The notes below the pieces were generated by a model, which searched no databases, was not told the DNA's origin, and saw only the letters and a list, made by a program, of their open reading frames with translations. The translations under genes and the position numbers were made by a program. Shown piece by piece: positions 7,831 to 15,603 of a stretch of DNA of 64,000 bases. Source of the stretch: Bacilli bacterium (GTDB lineage: Bacteria > Bacillota_I > Bacilli_A > RF39 > UBA660). The number at the start of each line of letters is the position of its first letter. Position 1 is the stretch's first letter. The stretch covers positions 8,416 through 72,415 of the forward strand of contig JAFRCD010000010.1 of the NCBI GenBank assembly GCA_017404555.1, written 5' to 3'.

Positions 7831-7834
7831 TAAA

Positions 7835-7866
7835 AAACACAGCTATAAGTTGTGTTTTATTTTTGG
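7835..7866 (+). terminator. Rho-independent terminator (copy A of a repeated hairpin)
   Basis: ACACAGC/GTTGTGT stem (one G-U pair), loop TATAA, then a T-run. Confidence 0.65.
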
Positions 7867-7876
7867 CTAAATACAA

Positions 7877-7905
7877 TTGCTATATTTATTAATCTTCGGT
7901 ATAAT
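7877..7905 (+). promoter_or_regulatory. Putative promoter TTGCTA-17-TATAAT
   Basis: Counted spacer of 17 nt. It lies upstream of the LicD-family gene. Confidence 0.55.
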
Positions 7906-7932: not shown

Positions 7933-8802
7933 ATGAAAAATTTTGGAACATATGATGAAAAAACATTGAAAATGCTACAAAAGGTAGAACTAGAAATGTT
8001 GAAAGATATTAATAAAGTGTGTGAAAAATATGATATTAAATACTTTGCCTTAGATGGAACAGGTATAGGAGCTATGAGACACAAGGGCTTTATTCCTTGG
8101 GATGATGACATTGATTTAAGATTCCTAGAAAAAGATGTAAGTAAATTTGTCAAATGTATGCAAGAGGAAATGCCAGATAAATATTACTTTGTTAATGAAA
8201 CTAGCTTTAAAAATTATCCTCTATCTTTTACTAAAATGTGCAAAAAGGATACTATCTTTGTTGAACATGCTACAGCAAATTCAGGAGTAGAGATAGGTAT
8301 ATTTATTGATATTGTTCCAATGGTATATGTTGACGATAATGAAAAAATAAGAAATAAGAAATTACTAAAATCGTGGTATATATATAAATTAGGGGTTTTA
8401 GCGGCAGTTAAAAATCCGGTTTTAAGTTTTGGAGGAATTAAAGCAAAAATAGTAGTGGCCGGATGCTATATAATTCATTATTTATTAAAACTACTACATT
8501 TGGATTCTGGGTTCTTTTTCAAAAAAGGTTATAAAGTTGCACTTGCAAATAAAAAAACTAACACAATCGCATCACTAAATACAGTATATAAACTAACAAG
8601 TATATATTCTGTTAACGATGTGTTTCCAGTAGTAAAAACCAAGTTTGAAGACACTTATGTTTATGTGCCCAAAGAATGTGATAAGTTGCTAAGAATTTAC
8701 TTTGGGGATTATATGGAATTGCCGCCTGAGGAAAAAAGGCATAACCATTGTCCTAAAAAATTAGTATTCGATAAAGAAAAAGAAAGCGAGAATAAAGTTT
8801 AA
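7933..8802 (+). CDS. licD: LicD-family phosphotransferase (phosphocholine/phospho-alcohol transferase to glycopolymers)
   Basis: 'LKMLQKVELEMLKDINKVCEKYDIKYFALDGTGIGAMRHKGFIPWDDDIDL' is the characteristic LicD N-terminal region with the DDDID motif. Confidence 0.8.
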   Translation: MKNFGTYDEKTLKMLQKVELEMLKDINKVCEKYDIKYFALDGTGIGAMRHKGFIPWDDDIDLRFLEKDVSKFVKCMQEEMPDKYYFVNETSFKNYPLSFTKMCKKDTIFVEHATANSGVEIGIFIDIVPMVYVDDNEKIRNKKLLKSWYIYKLGVLAAVKNPVLSFGGIKAKIVVAGCYIIHYLLKLLHLDSGFFFKKGYKVALANKKTNTIASLNTVYKLTSIYSVNDVFPVVKTKFEDTYVYVPKECDKLLRIYFGDYMELPPEEKRHNHCPKKLVFDKEKESENKV

Positions 8803-8903
8803 AGCCAATGTAGAACTAAAAGGAGGCTATAATATCAATTATAGGCTCTTTTTTCTACCTTTCATGTGGCCTGGAAATATGCTATAATATAGATGGTGAT
8901 ATT

Positions 8904-10028
8904 ATGAAAAACGTTGGTGTTGTGAGTTACAACATTAGATGCAATTTTACAAATTATGGTTCTGCCCTACAATCATGGGCGTTGAAAGAAACTATTGAGA
9001 AAATAGGTGGAGACAAACTGCATGCAAAACTAGTTGATTATTGTCCAGACGCCCACAGAGAGAGCGATCCCTTAAATCCTTATAAAAACATGTGGGATAA
9101 GGATGCAACGGCCAGAAAGAACTGTGAATTAACAATGCCAGCTATAAGAGAGAATTATAAAAAGTTTGAAGATTTTTATAACACACAATTTGATCGAACT
9201 AAAAAAATGTATGTTTCAGAAAACTTTGACAGTATTGTAGAAGAAGAAAACATAAAAAAATTTGTATGCGGCGCTGATACCATCTTTTGCGTTGATGAAT
9301 TTGGTATAGATGATGTTTTTTATGCCAACAAAAAGTGCATGAAGGAAAATTATACCTTTTCTTATGCTGCTAGTTTTGGAGATTCTCATTTTACGGAAGA
9401 AACTTATAAGCTGTTGGATCAAAGATTAACTAATTTTAAAGCAATTGGAATCCGTGAAAGTGAAATGGTTGATTATATTAAAGAACGTACAGTAGTCGAT
9501 GTAGAAAGGGTTATTGATCCAACTCTATTGTTAGAGGCTGATGATTACGAAAAGATAACAACTAAGGAGGTTCCTAAAGAAAAATACGTTTTATTATATA
9601 CAAGACGTGGTAACCAAATTATGGAAGATTATGCCGATATGATTGCCAATAAACTTCACTGCAAAGTCATTGAAATAAGTTTGAAAGCAACTAATAAAGA
9701 TAAACATGAAATGAGATATGATGCTGGTGTTGAGGAATTCCTAAATCTAGTAAAAAATGCTGAATATGTAGTAACTAATTCATATCATGGAATGATATTC
9801 TGTGTTCAATTTAGAAAGGACTTTGTTATTTTTTCTCGAGAACAATGCGACACTAAAATTGAAGAATTATTAAATATTATGGGTCTCCGAGATAGATTAT
9901 TAGTCACAGGGAAAGAAAGATTTAAAGAAGAGATAGACTATGATGCTGTTCACAACAATATTAAATCAGAAAAAGAAAAGAGTATTAAGTTTTTACAAAA
10001 ACAATTAAAAAAGGTAATAGGTGAGTAA
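8904..10028 (+). CDS. Polysaccharide pyruvyl transferase family protein
   Basis: N-terminal 'VGVVSYNIRCNFTNYGSALQSWAL' and a C-terminal 'VVTNSYHGMIF' pattern typical of PS_pyruv_trans proteins. It has its own extended -10 TGCTATAAT at 8880-8888. Confidence 0.7.
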   Translation: MKNVGVVSYNIRCNFTNYGSALQSWALKETIEKIGGDKLHAKLVDYCPDAHRESDPLNPYKNMWDKDATARKNCELTMPAIRENYKKFEDFYNTQFDRTKKMYVSENFDSIVEEENIKKFVCGADTIFCVDEFGIDDVFYANKKCMKENYTFSYAASFGDSHFTEETYKLLDQRLTNFKAIGIRESEMVDYIKERTVVDVERVIDPTLLLEADDYEKITTKEVPKEKYVLLYTRRGNQIMEDYADMIANKLHCKVIEISLKATNKDKHEMRYDAGVEEFLNLVKNAEYVVTNSYHGMIFCVQFRKDFVIFSREQCDTKIEELLNIMGLRDRLLVTGKERFKEEIDYDAVHNNIKSEKEKSIKFLQKQLKKVIGE

Positions 10029-10029
10029 T

Positions 10030-11727
10030 ATGAATAATAAATATCTTAGTAATAAAATACTAATCGAATTATTAAAAAAATATGGAATTAAAAAGTTAGT
10101 CCTATCATCTGGCTGTAGAAATGTGCCGTTTGTTTCAAATGTTGAAACTGATCCTGACTTCGAATGCTTTTCAGTAATTGATGAAAGAAACGCTGCCTTC
10201 TTTGGGATGGGGTTGAGTGAGGAGGCTAAAGAACCAGTTGCTATTGCCTGTACAAGTGGTACGGCTGCTTCTAATTATGTTTCTGGTGTTACAGAAGCAT
10301 ATTATTCTAAAGTGCCTTTAGTCGTTTTAACTTTTGATAGACATCCTTATATGTATAATCAATTGGAGACCCAAAAAATTGATCAGGAATCTATTTTTGA
10401 ATCTATTACTAAAAAAAGTGTAACATTACCGATTATTAAAGACGAAGAAGATGTTTGGTATTGTAATAGACTTATTAATGAAGCTTTTATAGAAATGACA
10501 AGGCATGGTGTAGGACCAGTACATATTAATGTTCCATTAGCTGGCGATATGAATAGCTTGTTTAATGATGATAGTAATAAAATGTCTGAAAAGGGAATGA
10601 AAAAAATTAATTATGTTTCTACAAATAATATGGTTTGGTTAAATAAAGTAGAAGAACTTCTTAAAACAAAAAAAGTACTCTTTATTCTAGGACAAGATTC
10701 CCTTTTAACAGATAAAGAAAAAGAAAAATTACGTAAATTTGCCGAAATTATGGACTGCCCTATACTGACAGATAATTTATCAAATTTTAAAAGTGAGCAT
10801 AATATTCTTGCAGGTCCCATTATTAAAGCTTTGAATTCTAAGACTATAAACGTTTTATTACCTGAGATAGTAATATCATATGGAAATAACATGCAAGAAA
10901 GAATAAAGGAAGTATTACGGGGGAAGAATATCAAACATTGGTATATTACACCTGATGGTAAAATTAGGGATTGTTTTAAAGCGTTAGATACAATATTTGA
11001 ATGTAGTATAAATGAATTTTTAGATATGTTTAATAAAAATTTTGAGAATAAGTATAAGCCAGATAAAAAATACTTTGAGAAATGGAAAAATATATCTGAA
11101 AGTATAAAACTACCAGAAATGCCATTTACTAATTTTTATGTTGCTAAAGAATTTTCTAAAATAATACCACATGATTCACTACTGCATTTGAGCATATTGA
11201 ATGCTACTAGACAGATGCAATTTTTCAATTTAGATGAATCGATAAAAGTATTTAGCAATGTTAATGCGTTTGGAATAGATGGGTGCTTGCCTACTTTTAT
11301 GGGACAAGCATATGCAACTGATAATTTAGCCTTTATTATGATAGGAGATTTAAGCTTCTTCTATGGTATGAATGCGTTATCGATAAAGCACAGGAAGAAG
11401 AATATTAGAGTATTAATGATTAATAATGGTGGTGGAGCCGAATTTCATATTCAACCTGATTCTAATAGCATCCCAACCATTGACTTGCATATTGGAGCGG
11501 CGCATAACAGGACTGCCAAAGAATGGGCAATTTCATCAGGATATAAATATTTAACCGCCAACGATAAAGAATCATTTGATAAGAATATTAAAGAATTCAT
11601 TTCTTCTGATAGTAAGGAGCCAATATTCTATGAAGTTTTTACGGATATGAAAACTGATGGAGAATTTTGTCTATCAGTGTATAGATATATGGAAGAAAGT
11701 ATAAAAGATTTGTTAAAAGAGGATTAA
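10030..11727 (+). CDS. Thiamine-diphosphate-dependent enzyme, MenD (SEPHCHC synthase)-like
   Basis: AGGTGA RBS, with ATG 10030 one nt after the upstream stop. PYR domain 'SSGCRNVPF..ERNAAFFGMG..CTSGTAASNY..LTFDRHP'. ThDP/Mg motif 'GDLSFFYGMNAL...NNGGGAEF'. Confidence 0.65.
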   Translation: MNNKYLSNKILIELLKKYGIKKLVLSSGCRNVPFVSNVETDPDFECFSVIDERNAAFFGMGLSEEAKEPVAIACTSGTAASNYVSGVTEAYYSKVPLVVLTFDRHPYMYNQLETQKIDQESIFESITKKSVTLPIIKDEEDVWYCNRLINEAFIEMTRHGVGPVHINVPLAGDMNSLFNDDSNKMSEKGMKKINYVSTNNMVWLNKVEELLKTKKVLFILGQDSLLTDKEKEKLRKFAEIMDCPILTDNLSNFKSEHNILAGPIIKALNSKTINVLLPEIVISYGNNMQERIKEVLRGKNIKHWYITPDGKIRDCFKALDTIFECSINEFLDMFNKNFENKYKPDKKYFEKWKNISESIKLPEMPFTNFYVAKEFSKIIPHDSLLHLSILNATRQMQFFNLDESIKVFSNVNAFGIDGCLPTFMGQAYATDNLAFIMIGDLSFFYGMNALSIKHRKKNIRVLMINNGGGAEFHIQPDSNSIPTIDLHIGAAHNRTAKEWAISSGYKYLTANDKESFDKNIKEFISSDSKEPIFYEVFTDMKTDGEFCLSVYRYMEESIKDLLKED

Positions 11728-11728
11728 T

Positions 11729-12763
11729 ATGCAAGAAAAAAGTATTTTAATATTGGGTGGCACCGGTGCCATGGGAACATCTTTAGTAGAGATATTGTCA
11801 CATGATGATAAATATAGTGTCTTTGTGACTACACGGCAAAGCAACCATAATGATTATAAAAATATAAAATATATAATTGGAAATGCTAGAGAAGAAGCTT
11901 TCATTCAGCAGGTATGTTCAAAAAAGTATGATGTAATTGTTGATTTCATGAACTATAATTTAGATGAATTTGAGAATTATCATACTGCACTTCTTAATGC
12001 TGCTGATCACTATTTGTTCTTAAGCTCTTGCCGGGTTTTCAGCAACGCTGAATTAATAGATGAAAGCACCCCTAGACTGTTAGAAACAACTAATGACACG
12101 GAGTTTTTAAAAACAAATAGATATGCATTAAGAAAGGCTCGAGAAGAGGATATCCTAACAAATTCTCCATATAATAATTGGACTATTATAAGACCATATA
12201 TTACATATAGTAATAGACGGTTACAACTAGGAATCTATGAGAAAGAAGAATGGTTATATAGATTATTAAACAATAGGCCATTAATATTACGAAAAGAAAT
12301 TTTAGATAAGTATACAACATTAACATATGGTAAAGATGTAGCATTAGGTATATATAATATTATTAATAATGAAAAATCATTAGGGCAAAAGATAAATATT
12401 GTCACAGAGGAATATACTACATGGCAAGACATATTGGATAAATATAAAGAAGTATTAAATCGCGAATTAAATATTGAACCAGAAATCTATTATGAAGAAA
12501 ATTTAGATGAGATTGAAATGTTGTTTGAGGGTGGTTATAACACTAAATATGACCGCTTATGGAATCGTCGATTTAAAAATGATAAAACAAAAGAATATTG
12601 TGGGGATATTGACTACAAAAAACCTTTACCAGGGATTGAACAATGCTTAGTAGAGCTAATTAACGATTGGAAAAAAGGTAAGGAAGTATTTAGAACAATA
12701 AATAGCGAATACGAGGACAAAATGAATAACTTGTGTAATCAAAAAACAAAGAGAAAGAGATGA
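11729..12763 (+). CDS. NAD(P)-dependent epimerase/dehydratase family (extended SDR) protein
   Basis: Rossmann motif 'ILILGGTGAMGTSL' and a candidate YxxxK 'YALRK'. Confidence 0.7.
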   Translation: MQEKSILILGGTGAMGTSLVEILSHDDKYSVFVTTRQSNHNDYKNIKYIIGNAREEAFIQQVCSKKYDVIVDFMNYNLDEFENYHTALLNAADHYLFLSSCRVFSNAELIDESTPRLLETTNDTEFLKTNRYALRKAREEDILTNSPYNNWTIIRPYITYSNRRLQLGIYEKEEWLYRLLNNRPLILRKEILDKYTTLTYGKDVALGIYNIINNEKSLGQKINIVTEEYTTWQDILDKYKEVLNRELNIEPEIYYEENLDEIEMLFEGGYNTKYDRLWNRRFKNDKTKEYCGDIDYKKPLPGIEQCLVELINDWKKGKEVFRTINSEYEDKMNNLCNQKTKRKR

Positions 12764-12767
12764 TAAA

Positions 12768-13841
12768 ATGATTAACTTTACAATTGGGCCAGTACAATCT
12801 AGCAAAGAAATAAGAAGAATTGGTGGCGAACAAGTACCATATTTTAGAACGCAAGAGTTTTCTAATTTGATGCTTGAAAATGAAAAACTAATTAAAAAAT
12901 TTATGGATGCTACTGAAGAAAGCAAAGTAGCATTTATAACTGGATCAGGGACAGCTTCCATGGAAGCAACTATTATGAATTTATTAACTAAAGAAGATAA
13001 AGCTTTAATTGTAAATGGTGGTGGTTTTGGACATAGATTTGTTGAGCTTTGTGAACTATATGAAGTTCCTTGTGATCAAATAATTCTAGATGTAGGACAA
13101 CCATTAACCGAAGAAATATTAAATAAATATAATCCTAGCGATTATAGTACCTTTATTGTAAACGTTCATGAAACCACGACTGGTGTTCACTATGATTTAA
13201 AATTAATTCATGATTTTTGTAAAAGAAACAGTTTGTTTTTAATAGTAGATGCTATCAGTTCATTTTTAGCGGATGAATTAAGTATGAAAGATGATGGAAT
13301 AGATGTGGTTATAACTGGATCTCAGAAAGCCTTGGCTTGTCCTCCAGGAATATCCATTATAACGTTATCTGAGAAAGCTGTGGAAAGGGTATATCAGAAT
13401 AACCCTAAGTGCCTATATTTAAACTTAAAAGAGGCCTTAGAAAATGCTAAAAGGGGACAGACACCTTTTACTCCAGCAGTAAGCATATTAAGACAAATAA
13501 ACGCTAGATTAAAACAAATTGATAATGCTGGTGGAACTGCATCAGAAGTAAAGAGAATATCAGCTCTAGCGAAATATTTCCGAGAAAGTATCAAGGATTT
13601 ACCATTTGAATATGTAACTAATTCACCATCTAATGCCATTACAGCACTTTCACCATTAAATGCTAGTGCCAATGATATATTTTTAGAACTAAAAGATAAT
13701 TATGGTATTTGGATATGTCCAAATGGTGGTGAATTAAAAGATAAGGTATTCAGAGTTGGGCATATAGGGGATCTAACTAATGAAGACTATGATAAATTAA
13801 TAGAGGCCTTCAAAGATTTACAAAAAAAAGGATTAATCTAG
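12768..13841 (+). CDS. Class V (AGXT/PhnW/SerC-like) pyridoxal-phosphate aminotransferase
   Basis: 'GSGTASMEA', 'DAISS' and 'TGSQKALACPPG' (PLP lysine context). Confidence 0.75.
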   Translation: MINFTIGPVQSSKEIRRIGGEQVPYFRTQEFSNLMLENEKLIKKFMDATEESKVAFITGSGTASMEATIMNLLTKEDKALIVNGGGFGHRFVELCELYEVPCDQIILDVGQPLTEEILNKYNPSDYSTFIVNVHETTTGVHYDLKLIHDFCKRNSLFLIVDAISSFLADELSMKDDGIDVVITGSQKALACPPGISIITLSEKAVERVYQNNPKCLYLNLKEALENAKRGQTPFTPAVSILRQINARLKQIDNAGGTASEVKRISALAKYFRESIKDLPFEYVTNSPSNAITALSPLNASANDIFLELKDNYGIWICPNGGELKDKVFRVGHIGDLTNEDYDKLIEAFKDLQKKGLI

Positions 13842-13854
13842 GAAGTGAATTATT

Positions 13855-15195
13855 ATGAAAAAAGTAATAACTTATGGTACATATGACCTGCTTCATTATG
13901 GTCACATCAGGCTTTTAGAAAGAGCTAAAGAGTTAGGAGATTATTTAATAGTTGGGGTAACATCAGATGATTTTGACAAGAGAAGAGGCAAGATAAACGT
14001 TCAGCAATCCCTAATTGAAAGAGTACAAGCAGTAAAAAGCACTGGTTTAGCTGATGAGATAATAATTGAAGAATATGAGGGCCAAAAAATAGATGATATT
14101 TGTAACTATGGTATAGATATATTTACTGTTGGATCAGACTGGGTAGGCAAATTTGATTATTTAAAGGAGTATTGTGAGGTAATATATTTAGATAGGACCG
14201 AAGGTGTTTCCAGCACTGAGATTAGGAGTAAAAATAGATCTCTTAATCTAGGAATAGTAGGTTCATTTAACTTTATTCAAAAACACTTAAACGAATCAAA
14301 ATATGTAAATGGGTTAGAAATAACTAAAATCAACTCTGAAGATAAAATACCTAAACACATGCTAAAAGAATACAATCTAACAGTAGAAGATGATTATGAT
14401 AAATTATTAGATAGTGTTGACGCTATTTATATTGCAACTAATCCTGATAAGCATTACGAAATAATAAAGAAAGCTATTGAAAAAAAGAAACATGTATTAT
14501 GTGAATCACCAATAACTTTGAAAAAAGAGGAATGTAAGAAATTGTTAGCTCTGGCTGATAAAAAAGGTGTTGTTTTAATGGAAGCTATTAAAACCAATTA
14601 TGCTAATGCATATATGCGCTTGATGCTACTTGCTAAAACAGGGGTAGTAGGGAAAATAGTTTCGGTTGATGCAACATGTACCAGTTTAAGACAATTAGAA
14701 GAATTAGGAGAAAAGAAGATAACTAATTATCAAAATAGTATCTGTGCTTGGGGACCAACTGCTATGCTACCAGTATTTCAATTGCTAGGAACTAAGTATA
14801 AAGAAAAACATATTACATCTTTATTGAGTGATAAGAATAAGAATTTTGATTTGTTCACAAAGATAAGCTTTGATTATAAAGATGCAACAGCAACAATCAA
14901 AGTAGGAAAGGGAGTAAAGTCAGAAGGGGAATTGATAATATCAGGTACAAAAGGGTATATCTATGTTCCAGCACCATGGTGGAAAATAGATTACTTTGAG
15001 GTAAGGTATGAAGATCCTGCCAAAAACAGAAGATATTTCTACCAATTAGAAGGCGAAGGGATACGATATGAATTAATTAGTTTCTTAAGGGCTATTAACA
15101 AGAAAACTAAGGTTGGTGGAATAAAGAAAGACACCACATTGGCTATCGTCGAAGTAATTGAAGATTTTTATAATAAAAAGAAAAATACTATATAG
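13855..15195 (+). CDS. Bifunctional glycerol-3-phosphate cytidylyltransferase (TagD-like) / Gfo-Idh-MocA oxidoreductase fusion
   Basis: The N-terminal ~130 aa, 'KVITYGTYDLLHYGHIRLLERAKELGDYLIVG...GSDWVGKFDYLKEYCEVIYLDRTEGVSSTEIR', closely resemble my recollection of B. subtilis TagD (HxGH motif). The C-terminal ~310 aa carry a Gfo/Idh/MocA-type Rossmann fold ('LNLGIVGSFNF', 'HVLCESP'). Confidence 0.75.
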   Translation: MKKVITYGTYDLLHYGHIRLLERAKELGDYLIVGVTSDDFDKRRGKINVQQSLIERVQAVKSTGLADEIIIEEYEGQKIDDICNYGIDIFTVGSDWVGKFDYLKEYCEVIYLDRTEGVSSTEIRSKNRSLNLGIVGSFNFIQKHLNESKYVNGLEITKINSEDKIPKHMLKEYNLTVEDDYDKLLDSVDAIYIATNPDKHYEIIKKAIEKKKHVLCESPITLKKEECKKLLALADKKGVVLMEAIKTNYANAYMRLMLLAKTGVVGKIVSVDATCTSLRQLEELGEKKITNYQNSICAWGPTAMLPVFQLLGTKYKEKHITSLLSDKNKNFDLFTKISFDYKDATATIKVGKGVKSEGELIISGTKGYIYVPAPWWKIDYFEVRYEDPAKNRRYFYQLEGEGIRYELISFLRAINKKTKVGGIKKDTTLAIVEVIEDFYNKKKNTI

Positions 15196-15213: not shown

Positions 15214-15573
15214 ATGGAAGATATAAAAATAATTGACCAATTTATGGATGAAAGAGAATTTAGAAACTATATAGTAAAACTATTAGATGAAAATGGTTTT
15301 ACTGATATTTCTATTGAGGATGCTCGTCTTAGTGATGAGGAACCAAAAAATAATAATGATTTAATAGCTAAAAAAGGTAAAGAAAGATATACTATTCAGA
15401 CTTTCTTAAATAAGGAAATAGGTTCCAAAGAAATAAAAGAAACATTAAGGGATATGAAAGAAGAATATGCTTCTAAAGCATTAATAATTACCAATAAGGA
15501 AGTATCTGAAGAAGTAATTAAAGAAGCAGAAGAAGCTGGCATAGAAATTTGGGATCGAAAAAAGTTTAAATAA
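15214..15573 (+). CDS. Small restriction-endonuclease-fold (Mrr_cat-like) protein
   Basis: Pattern 'GFTDI...NDLIAKKGKERYTIQTF...ALIITNKEVSEEVIKEAEEAGIEIWDRKKF' resembles the Mrr catalytic domain. The usual Q-x-K lysine is replaced (QTF). Confidence 0.45.
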   Translation: MEDIKIIDQFMDEREFRNYIVKLLDENGFTDISIEDARLSDEEPKNNNDLIAKKGKERYTIQTFLNKEIGSKEIKETLRDMKEEYASKALIITNKEVSEEVIKEAEEAGIEIWDRKKFK

Positions 15574-15603
15574 AAAGCACAACTATTAAGTTGTGTTTTT
15601 ATT
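15572..15603. terminator. Bidirectional terminator (copy B of the repeated hairpin)
   Basis: CACAACT/AGTTGTG perfect stem, loop ATTA, flanked by A- and T-runs. It sits between convergent genes. Confidence 0.7.

Follow-up and report, generated by a model that had tools for sequence, protein, structure and literature searches.

A MenD-lineage thiamine diphosphate enzyme accompanied by a pyruvyl transferase and a reductase: a candidate carboligase of ether-linked hydroxy acids

Why should a bacterium with a small genome, in which no menaquinone pathway is found, carry a gene for a MenD-like enzyme? The question is raised by a stretch of 64,000 nucleotides (hereafter the ‘window’; contig JAFRCD010000010.1, positions 8,416 to 72,415 of the forward strand, assembly GCA_017404555.1) from a Bacilli bacterium of the RF39 lineage, in which an open reading frame (ORF) at 10030-11727 encodes a MenD-like thiamine diphosphate (ThDP) enzyme of 565 amino acids (aa), here called P0001. 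We consider it very probable that P0001 is not MenD, the synthase of SEPHCHC (2-succinyl-5-enolpyruvyl-6-hydroxy-3-cyclohexene-1-carboxylate), but part of a recurrent triad of pyruvyl transferase, MenD-like enzyme and reductase. As to what the triad does, the best overall explanation, in which our confidence is evenly balanced, is that P0001 is a neofunctionalised carboligase of MenD lineage, serving as the middle enzyme of this set to build an ether-linked hydroxy acid on a molecule of the cell surface.

Identity of the MenD-like enzyme

The frame translates as 565 codons with no internal stop; its ATG has a Shine-Dalgarno-like AGGTGAG just 5' of it, and lies 1 nt past the stop codon of a PS_pyruv_trans-family gene (8904-10028). 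Pfam finds the TPP_enzyme_N, TPP_enzyme_M_2 and TPP_enzyme_C domains in the product. Amongst the NCBIfam models, TIGR00173 (menD) scores 274.2 bits and so passes its cut-off of 244.2, whereas those for acetolactate synthase (ALS) fall far short (31-72 bits, with cut-offs of 509-1084), as do those for glyoxylate carboligase and sulfoacetaldehyde acetyltransferase. The nearest solved structures are the MenDs of Listeria, B. subtilis, S. aureus and E. coli (E-values of 1.7e-51 to 1e-24; PDB comparators 9E9B, 3LQ1, 2X7J, 7TIN and 5EJ4), with Listeria MenD 9E9B as the top match (1.7e-51) and a plant ALS reaching only 4e-9. All of this agrees with the initial annotation, made from the letters of the DNA, which had placed a MenD-family ThDP enzyme here, of a lineage different from that of the branched-sugar enzyme YerE; it had also left room for a best alignment to ALS or phosphonopyruvate decarboxylase, which on checking is not the case, MenD models and structures matching best. 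The motifs that it listed are all present in P0001, namely ERNAAFFGMG (with the catalytic Glu52), CTSGTAASNY, LTFDRHP (with Arg104) and GDLSFFYGMNAL...NNGGGAEF (with Asp440 and Asn466). The essentials of a ThDP enzyme are in place: Glu52, the GDx(25-30)NN motif running from Asp440 to Asn466, and Ile416, which supports the V-conformation of the cofactor, are invariant across the clade to which P0001 belongs. Evidently, the TIGR00173 cut-off also admits a MenD-like paralogous clade, which is why public records name the relatives of P0001 as MenD.

That clade emerges from a FastTree phylogeny (SH-like support values) of 171 aligned sequences, comprising close homologs, 141 representatives from clustering at 50% identity, proteins from fetched loci and the MenD of E. 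coli MG1655. P0001 is placed within a group of 80 leaves (support 0.975), 78 of which carry glutamate at the position of E. coli Ile474 (hence ‘Glu474 clade’), and within it in a subclade of 19 leaves (support 1.0) that extends to more than 120 clusters at 90% identity. The canonical clade, uniting E. coli MenD with the MenDs of Bacteroides men operons, stands apart (support 0.948) and takes in around 30 of the 150 best representatives (50% clustering; 141 usable in the tree). A clade separate from bona fide MenD, as the initial annotation had envisaged, is therefore what the tree returns, and P0001 does not cluster with the true enzymes.

The active-site columns of the same alignment, taken at the positions of E. 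coli and B. subtilis MenD residues, tell a similar story. In the canonical set, which takes in the Bacteroides men-operon proteins, the 18 columns read S32, R33, E55, R107, N/G117, Q118, K292, R293, S391, R395, R413, I418, D442, N469, G471, I474, F475 and L478; in P0001 they read C, R, E, R, T, Q, gap, R, L, R, V, I, D, N, G, E, F and Q. Unchanged relative to E. coli MenD are Arg30, Glu52, Arg104, Gln115, Arg291, Arg394, Ile416, Asp440, Asn466 and Phe472; Ser391, Arg413, Ile474 and Leu478 are replaced by Leu390, Val411, Glu471 and Gln475, respectively, and Lys292 aligns to a gap. Neither substrate site is intact. That for 2-oxoglutarate (E. coli Ser391, Arg395 and Arg413; B. subtilis Arg409 and Arg428) reads Leu390, Arg394 and Val411. 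To the initial annotation's question of whether the isochorismate-binding residues (Arg33, Arg107, Lys292/Arg293, Ile474, Phe475 and Leu478, in MenD itself reported to be strictly conserved) are conserved, the answer is divided: Arg30, Arg104, Arg291 and Phe472 are kept, but Ile474, Leu478 and Lys292 are lost to Glu471, Gln475 and the gap. The signature of the P0001 subclade, in E. coli numbering, is R33, R107, T117, R293, L391, R/K395, V/I/A413, E474 and F475, with Glu471 of P0001 invariant where MenD has Ile474.

Mutagenesis of B. subtilis MenD indicates what these changes might mean (PMC2914249). Arg428 (E. coli Arg413) serves mainly to bind 2-oxoglutarate, with an increase in Km of more than 20-fold for the alanine mutant; Arg409 (E. 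coli Arg395) binds both substrates; recognition of isochorismate, the carboxylated acceptor, falls to Arg32 and Arg106; and catalysis is affected most by Ile489 (E. coli Ile474) and Phe490. Of the eight residues mutated in that study, five basic and three non-polar, seven are strictly conserved in MenD (PMC2914249). A sister clade of P0001, found in Wzy loci, retains Ser391, Arg395 and Arg413, as expected of users of 2-oxoglutarate.

The host genome points the same way. In the 944-kb assembly (95.96% complete) no match was found to menB, isochorismate synthase (menF) or menA, so that the absence of men genes nearby, as first reported, extends to the whole genome, and P0001 is encoded by its sole menD-like gene. 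Amongst 201 sampled genomes of the phylum, mostly small (~0.7-3 Mb) and some of them with in-frame TGA codons in the matches, only the host passes the menD cut-off; two genomes of the same family within that sample give no match, and the cassette that carries the gene is therefore accessory. That P0001 might be a bona fide MenD, unusual in gene order alone, draws on its passing the TIGR00173 equivalog cut-off and on the MenD labels of its relatives; against this stand the other men genes, not found in a 96%-complete genome, the separate clade and the altered substrate residues, for which reasons we reject it as very improbable indeed. Of five criteria for a MenD equivalog, P0001 passes the TIGR00173 cut-off and fails the other four.

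The pyruvyl transferase, MenD-like enzyme and reductase triad

A scan of one genome per species yielded 24 loci with MenD homologs. In Bacteroides these sit in menF-menD-menB-menC-menE operons; in every other locus with enough flanking sequence, barring two, a PS_pyruv_trans gene is present instead, usually directly upstream, and in most such loci a short-chain dehydrogenase/reductase (SDR) or aldo/keto reductase (AKR) lies directly downstream of the MenD-like gene. The two exceptions are Lachnospiraceae/Eubacterium loci, from a subclade that lacks Arg33 and Arg107. Other taxa have orthologs of the transferase in the window (41-63% identity) adjacent to, or not far from, their MenD-like genes, and the order pyruvyl transferase, MenD-like enzyme, SDR or AKR recurs in metagenome-assembled genomes (MAGs) of Clostridia, in Ligilactobacillus ruminis DSM 20403, Companilactobacillus insicii and Succinivibrionaceae, and in a verrucomicrobial MAG. 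The triads of Bifidobacterium pseudolongum and B. oedipodis lie inside exopolysaccharide (EPS) loci with GT2, GT1 and EpsG, and those of distant representatives within Wzx/Wzy loci in metagenomic contexts.

The partners are also found fused. PS_pyruv_trans precedes the MenD-like enzyme in P0149, P0164 and P0168 and follows it in P0157; P0184 (1283 aa) joins an FrhB-like/4Fe-4S protein, PS_pyruv_trans and the MenD-like enzyme, in that order; and P0122, P0140, P0195 and P0220 run from AKR through a 4Fe-4S dicluster domain to the MenD-like enzyme. Fusion in both orders, along with constant adjacency across phyla, provides strong evidence that transferase, ThDP enzyme and reductase work in consecutive steps; this conserved context, fusions included, also tells against a true MenD.

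A search of plasmids gave mostly true MenDs and one useful match, on the 420-kb pRUMAL01 of Ruminococcus albus 7, a cultured type strain. Here (344633-357263; L075) the order is aminotransferase, a cytidylyltransferase-oxidoreductase fusion, LicD, GNAT, LicD, GT2, pyruvyl transferase, flippase, MenD-like enzyme, SDR and acyltransferase, with the MenD-like gene annotated as ‘thiamine pyrophosphate-binding protein’; the plasmid thus carries both the triad and a second module, which is also that of the window.

The cassette in the window and its exchangeable slot

In the window, the MenD-like gene is third in a tightly packed unit of six genes (7933-15195), the SDR gene starting 1 nt after its stop codon. 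The features of the cassette are as follows.

7834-7858, + strand: terminator-like hairpin past nrdG, the upstream boundary of the cassette; its stem resembles that at 15578-15595
7877-7905, + strand: promoter-like site (TTGCTA-17-TATAAT) ahead of licD; a consensus match only
7933-8802, + strand: LicD-family phosphotransferase, 289 aa (Pfam LicD, 9.6e-37); the sole LicD in the genome
8904-10028, + strand: PS_pyruv_trans-family enzyme, 374 aa (PF04230, 2.3e-29); the sole copy in the genome
10030-11727, + strand: MenD-like ThDP enzyme (P0001), 565 aa (ORF, Pfam, NCBIfam, structure-sequence matches, alignment)
11729-12763, + strand: extended SDR of the NAD-dependent epimerase/dehydratase family, 344 aa, the reductase of the triad (Pfam Epimerase/NmrA)
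12768-13841, + strand: class-V aminotransferase, 357 aa, PhnW/AepZ-like but under the cut-offs for those models (Pfam, NCBIfam)
13855-15195, + strand: TagD-like cytidylyltransferase fused to a Gfo/Idh/MocA oxidoreductase (CT-Gfo), 446 aa (Pfam, NCBIfam)
15214-15573, + strand: small protein of Mrr_cat fold, 119 aa, at the end of the cassette and not in the pathway (Pfam)
15578-15595, no strand assigned: palindromic hairpin closing the cassette; its stem resembles that at 7834-7858

The pyruvyl transferase, SDR and aminotransferase are the neighbours that the initial annotation had named, and correctly so. Its ‘cell-wall operon’, by contrast, is better described as a compact LicD-type decoration cassette of six genes set between nrdDG and housekeeping genes, rather than a classical wall-polymer operon: nrdD and nrdG lie on one side, and on the other come a prfA-like release factor, YitT, FemAB, FtsEX, a PcsB-like hydrolase and UvrB. 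There are no glycosyltransferase, flippase or polymerase genes in the cassette; two Wzx-like flippase genes were found in the genome, both on other contigs, and no TagF-type enzyme. The bracketing hairpins, of similar stem (…ACACAGCT… and CACAACT…), enclose the six genes and the Mrr-fold ORF, and this last stands alone, with no methyltransferase or specificity partner nearby. A check for recent insertion found no convincing direct repeats around the cassette and no shift in GC content (~0.30-0.32, the same as its surroundings).

LicD, the aminotransferase and CT-Gfo join the triad only in the P0001 subclade (at least 47% identity). CT-Gfo fusions form a very abundant family, and the three genes are seen elsewhere as a minimal module without any addition, with a GNAT gene, or with PS_pyruv_trans and an FrhB-like flavin/FeS protein; in the window the addition is PS_pyruv_trans, the MenD-like enzyme and the reductase. 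Since this module occurs without the ThDP enzyme, and since R. albus 7 has its GNAT version next to the triad, the two modules are separable. In two cassettes of the FrhB type (L065:3705-9305 and L067:4578-9350) a single FrhB-like/4Fe-4S protein replaces both the MenD-like enzyme and the SDR, with the pyruvyl transferase (56-58% identity), aminotransferase (56-64%) and CT-Gfo (62-65%) orthologous to those of the window. Judged by sequence, an FrhB-like reductase is exchangeable with the MenD-like enzyme plus SDR, in the same slot and behind the same transferase ortholog; such a swap points to chemistry on the enolpyruvyl group of the pyruvyl transferase rather than on a keto-sugar. By analogy it fits the logic of MurA and MurB acting on a shared enolpyruvyl intermediate, and in FrhB-type cassettes a lactyl (1-carboxyethyl) group may be made in the manner of MurA/MurB. 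As a separate observation, a common type of gut contig (L073:1579-4632 and L074:1579-4632), of which the CT-Gfo protein turns up in 198 indexed blocks of the assembly collection, has its MenD-like gene split by a DDE transposase and the remaining LicD, pyruvyl transferase, aminotransferase and CT-Gfo genes intact: a natural ‘knock-out’.

The swap also bears on the precedent that the initial annotation had invoked, that of YerE. In its fullest form, the proposal would have P0001 carry out a 1,2-addition to a ketone or aldehyde made by the Gfo domain on cytidine diphosphate (CDP)-glycerol or a sugar nucleotide, with the SDR reducing the side-chain ketone as YerF does. The pairing of ThDP enzyme and reductase mirrors YerE/YerF, the fused Gfo/Idh/MocA oxidoreductase could create the carbonyl, and MenDs do perform 1,2-additions to aldehydes in vitro; many Wzx/Wzy loci, however, carry the triad without an oxidoreductase to supply a keto acceptor, the constant and often fused pyruvyl transferase is left with no role, and the module of CT-Gfo, aminotransferase and LicD occurs without a ThDP enzyme. 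We therefore think this route unlikely. What survives of the precedent is the use of a ThDP enzyme in glycan tailoring, together with the suggested role in decoration (of a glycan or a head group) by chemistry other than that of menaquinone; the keto-sugar acceptor drawn from YerE lacks support in that form, given that the constant or fused partner is a pyruvyl transferase and that the FrhB swap indicates enolpyruvyl chemistry.

The aminotransferase brings a further rival into play. Its best models are transaminases of the 2-aminoethylphosphonate or aldehyde type (top model TIGR03301, 157.7 bits, under the cut-off), and P0001 could follow the logic of phosphonopyruvate decarboxylase, simply decarboxylating a 2-oxoacid to an aldehyde that passes to the PhnW-like aminotransferase or to the SDR. 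One such sequence would lead from 3-phosphohydroxypyruvate through phosphoglycolaldehyde and phosphoethanolamine to CDP-ethanolamine, for transfer by LicD. The invariant Glu471 and His473 suggest acid-base chemistry foreign to MenD, and the cytidylyltransferase family includes enzymes for ethanolamine phosphate. Yet the pyruvyl transferase goes unexplained here too, as do triads in loci without aminotransferase, cytidylyltransferase or LicD, and the exchange for an FrhB-like reductase; both the general idea and this example strike us as rather improbable. A phosphonate (Ppd-like) version is rejected, as the host genome gives no match to phosphoenolpyruvate (PEP) mutase (TIGR02320).

The probable job of the second module is to make a CDP-activated amino-alcohol phosphate, for example serinol phosphate, and to transfer it. 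The sole NCBIfam match of the LicD protein is to the glycolipid cholinephosphotransferase Mf1 of Mycoplasma fermentans, which it hits with 69 bits where the cut-off is 225. The glycolipids of M. fermentans contain a 2-amino-1,3-propanediol phosphate unit, and a glycolipid acceptor is worth considering for this reduced genome.

A proposed reaction scheme and known systems

Synthesising these observations, we propose the following scheme. PS_pyruv_trans enzymes, which draw on PEP, go through an enolpyruvyl stage, MurB delivers hydride to C3 of an enolpyruvyl ether, and the native reaction of MenD is a Stetter-type conjugate addition of a ThDP-bound acyl anion to the β-carbon of an unsaturated carboxylate with an enolpyruvyl group of its own. 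We suggest that the pyruvyl transferase of the triad would convert PEP into an enolpyruvyl ether on an acceptor hydroxyl; that the MenD-like enzyme would decarboxylate a 2-oxoacid, probably pyruvate in preference to 2-oxoglutarate, and deliver the ThDP-bound acyl anion to C3 of the enolpyruvyl group by a Stetter-type 1,4-addition, giving a 4-oxo-2-O-linked acid, with Glu471 protonating C2 after the addition; and that the SDR would then reduce the 4-oxo group to yield a 2-ether of 2,4-dihydroxypentanoate. The aminotransferase could, alternatively, act on the 4-oxo group, and the ether may be carried on a sugar of a glycan or on an amino-alcohol head group. We regard this three-step scheme as the simplest that makes use of all three conserved partners. 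Our confidence in its parts differs: for the Stetter addition to an enolpyruvyl group it falls a little short of even, and pyruvate is a possible but somewhat doubtful donor, suggested because the site for the distal carboxylate (Arg413 and Ser391) is lost here and kept by the sister clade of Wzy loci.

Two published structures have the form that this scheme would predict. PMC10609480, citing Shashkov 2008, reports that sugars in the O31 O-antigen of Providencia alcalifaciens carry 2,4-dihydroxypentanoic acid 2-ethers, and megapolipeptin has an ether-linked 2-hydroxy-4-oxoheptanedioate; two products of its gene cluster, MgpK (a putative pyruvyl transferase) and MgpL (a ThDP lyase), are put forward tentatively by the authors as the builders of the ether group (PMC11411415). 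Addition of a C2 unit to the C3 acceptor, followed by reduction, would give the former acid, and addition of a C4 unit the latter.

The megapolipeptin authors' proposal suggests that the order of events might be reversed, with the ThDP enzyme adding the acyl anion to PEP itself and the PS_pyruv_trans-like enzyme then transferring the resulting 2-phospho-4-oxo acid; 1,5-dicarboxy-3-oxopentyl phosphate is the precursor that they propose for MgpK and MgpL (PMC11411415). PEP is itself an enolpyruvyl compound, and one with a phosphate and a carboxylate that Arg30 and Arg104 could bind. Such an addition, though, would leave a phosphate that has ceased to be an enol phosphate, so that on mechanistic grounds the addition-elimination of a pyruvyl transferase would not apply, and the exchange of an FrhB-like protein for the MenD-like enzyme is easier to understand if both, like MurB, act once transfer has taken place. 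We hold this order of steps to be improbable, on a par with plain decarboxylation.

Several points weigh against addition to an enolpyruvyl ether as we have drawn it. Enolpyruvyl ethers are rich in electrons and make poor Michael acceptors, and the usual outcome with PS_pyruv_trans enzymes is closure of a ketal, not release of an enol ether. An active-site glutamate near position 474 resembles that of enzymes of the pyruvate decarboxylase type, such that plain decarboxylation to an aldehyde is possible, and a PhnW-like aminotransferase would suit an aldehyde product. The donor assignment draws on just two lost residues. Part of the Glu474 clade lacks Arg33 and Arg107 and is nevertheless linked to a pyruvyl transferase (P0157 and R. 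albus), and the argument from acceptor binding is therefore not general. In L. ruminis DSM 20403 the reductase slot directly after the MenD-like gene (L004:11738-12823) appears to hold a second class-V aminotransferase paralog (tblastn, 47% identity); no ORF there is longer than 227 aa, and the gene may be damaged. Lastly, no published assay, structure or gene-to-product assignment for the P0001 clade was found in the literature.

Taking all six genes of this reduced gut or rumen bacterium as a single pathway, we would speculate further that they make a new kind of zwitterionic head group, a CDP-activated unit resembling serinol phosphate with an ether-linked 2,4-dihydroxy- or 4-amino-2-hydroxy-pentanoate, the ether arising via Stetter addition to an enolpyruvyl ether, and LicD placing the whole on a glycolipid or wall glycan; this is an unlikely reading, marginally more so than the YerE-like route. 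Were it true, ThDP Stetter chemistry would gain a new use in biology, a whole family of ‘extended pyruvate’ decorations would come to light, and hundreds of ‘MenD’ entries in databases would prove to be misannotated.

To our knowledge, MenD is the only well-studied natural ThDP enzyme of the Stetter type. Its large sister radiation is tied to the pyruvyl transferases of surface-glycan loci in bacteria of the gut and rumen, cultured strains of Ligilactobacillus, Bifidobacterium and Ruminococcus among them. What we believe to be new is the contrast between clades in donor-site residues, the exchange of FrhB-like and MenD-like proteins behind orthologous transferases, and the presence of such an enzyme in a minimal genome where no men genes are found. 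If our proposal is correct, it would assign genes to the 2,4-dihydroxypentanoate ether decoration of Providencia, explain the 4-oxoheptanedioate ether of megapolipeptin, offer new carboligases for biocatalysis, and correct a systematic ‘MenD’ misannotation, which can falsely suggest menaquinone synthesis where the pathway is lacking.

Nothing specific was found in the literature on a MenD/pyruvyl transferase pair in polysaccharide loci, one Bifidobacterium paper merely listing a ‘thiamine pyrophosphate enzyme’ in an EPS cluster; nor was a genetic assignment for lactyl ethers found in a review of E. coli O-antigens, nor any description of biosynthetic genes for the Providencia ethers. MgpK and MgpL, of Paraburkholderia megapolitana, are the only published pairing of a pyruvyl transferase with a ThDP enzyme that we found, and we liken them to the triad by description only: a proposed ether-linked 2-hydroxy-4-oxo acid is common to both, but theirs is part of a lipopeptide natural product, rather than a surface glycan, and is a C7 acid, implying 2-oxoglutarate as donor; their role, moreover, is the subject of one tentative sentence (PMC11411415).

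By sequence, MenD itself (EC 2.2.1.9) is nearest, with E-values of 1e-51 to 1e-44. P0001 shares its three-domain ThDP fold, catalytic Glu, ThDP/Mg motif and V-conformation Ile, along with Arg33, Arg107 and Arg395, and probably also the Stetter-like 1,4-addition to an unsaturated carboxylate; it differs in belonging to a separate clade and to a genome in which no men pathway was found, in its changes at Arg413, Ser391, Ile474, Leu478 and Lys292, and in having a pyruvyl transferase and a reductase as partners, in place of MenF, MenH and MenB. YerE and YerF, which make yersiniose, offer a ThDP carboligase and a reductase in glycan tailoring; YerE, however, is of ALS lineage and performs a 1,2-addition to a CDP-4-keto-sugar, whereas P0001 is of MenD lineage and tied to a pyruvyl transferase. 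The closest parallel in logic is that of MurA and MurB, where enolpyruvyl transfer is followed by a conjugate addition to give a lactyl ether; the protein families are unrelated, and the triad would add a carbon nucleophile in place of hydride, and then reduce the ketone so formed.

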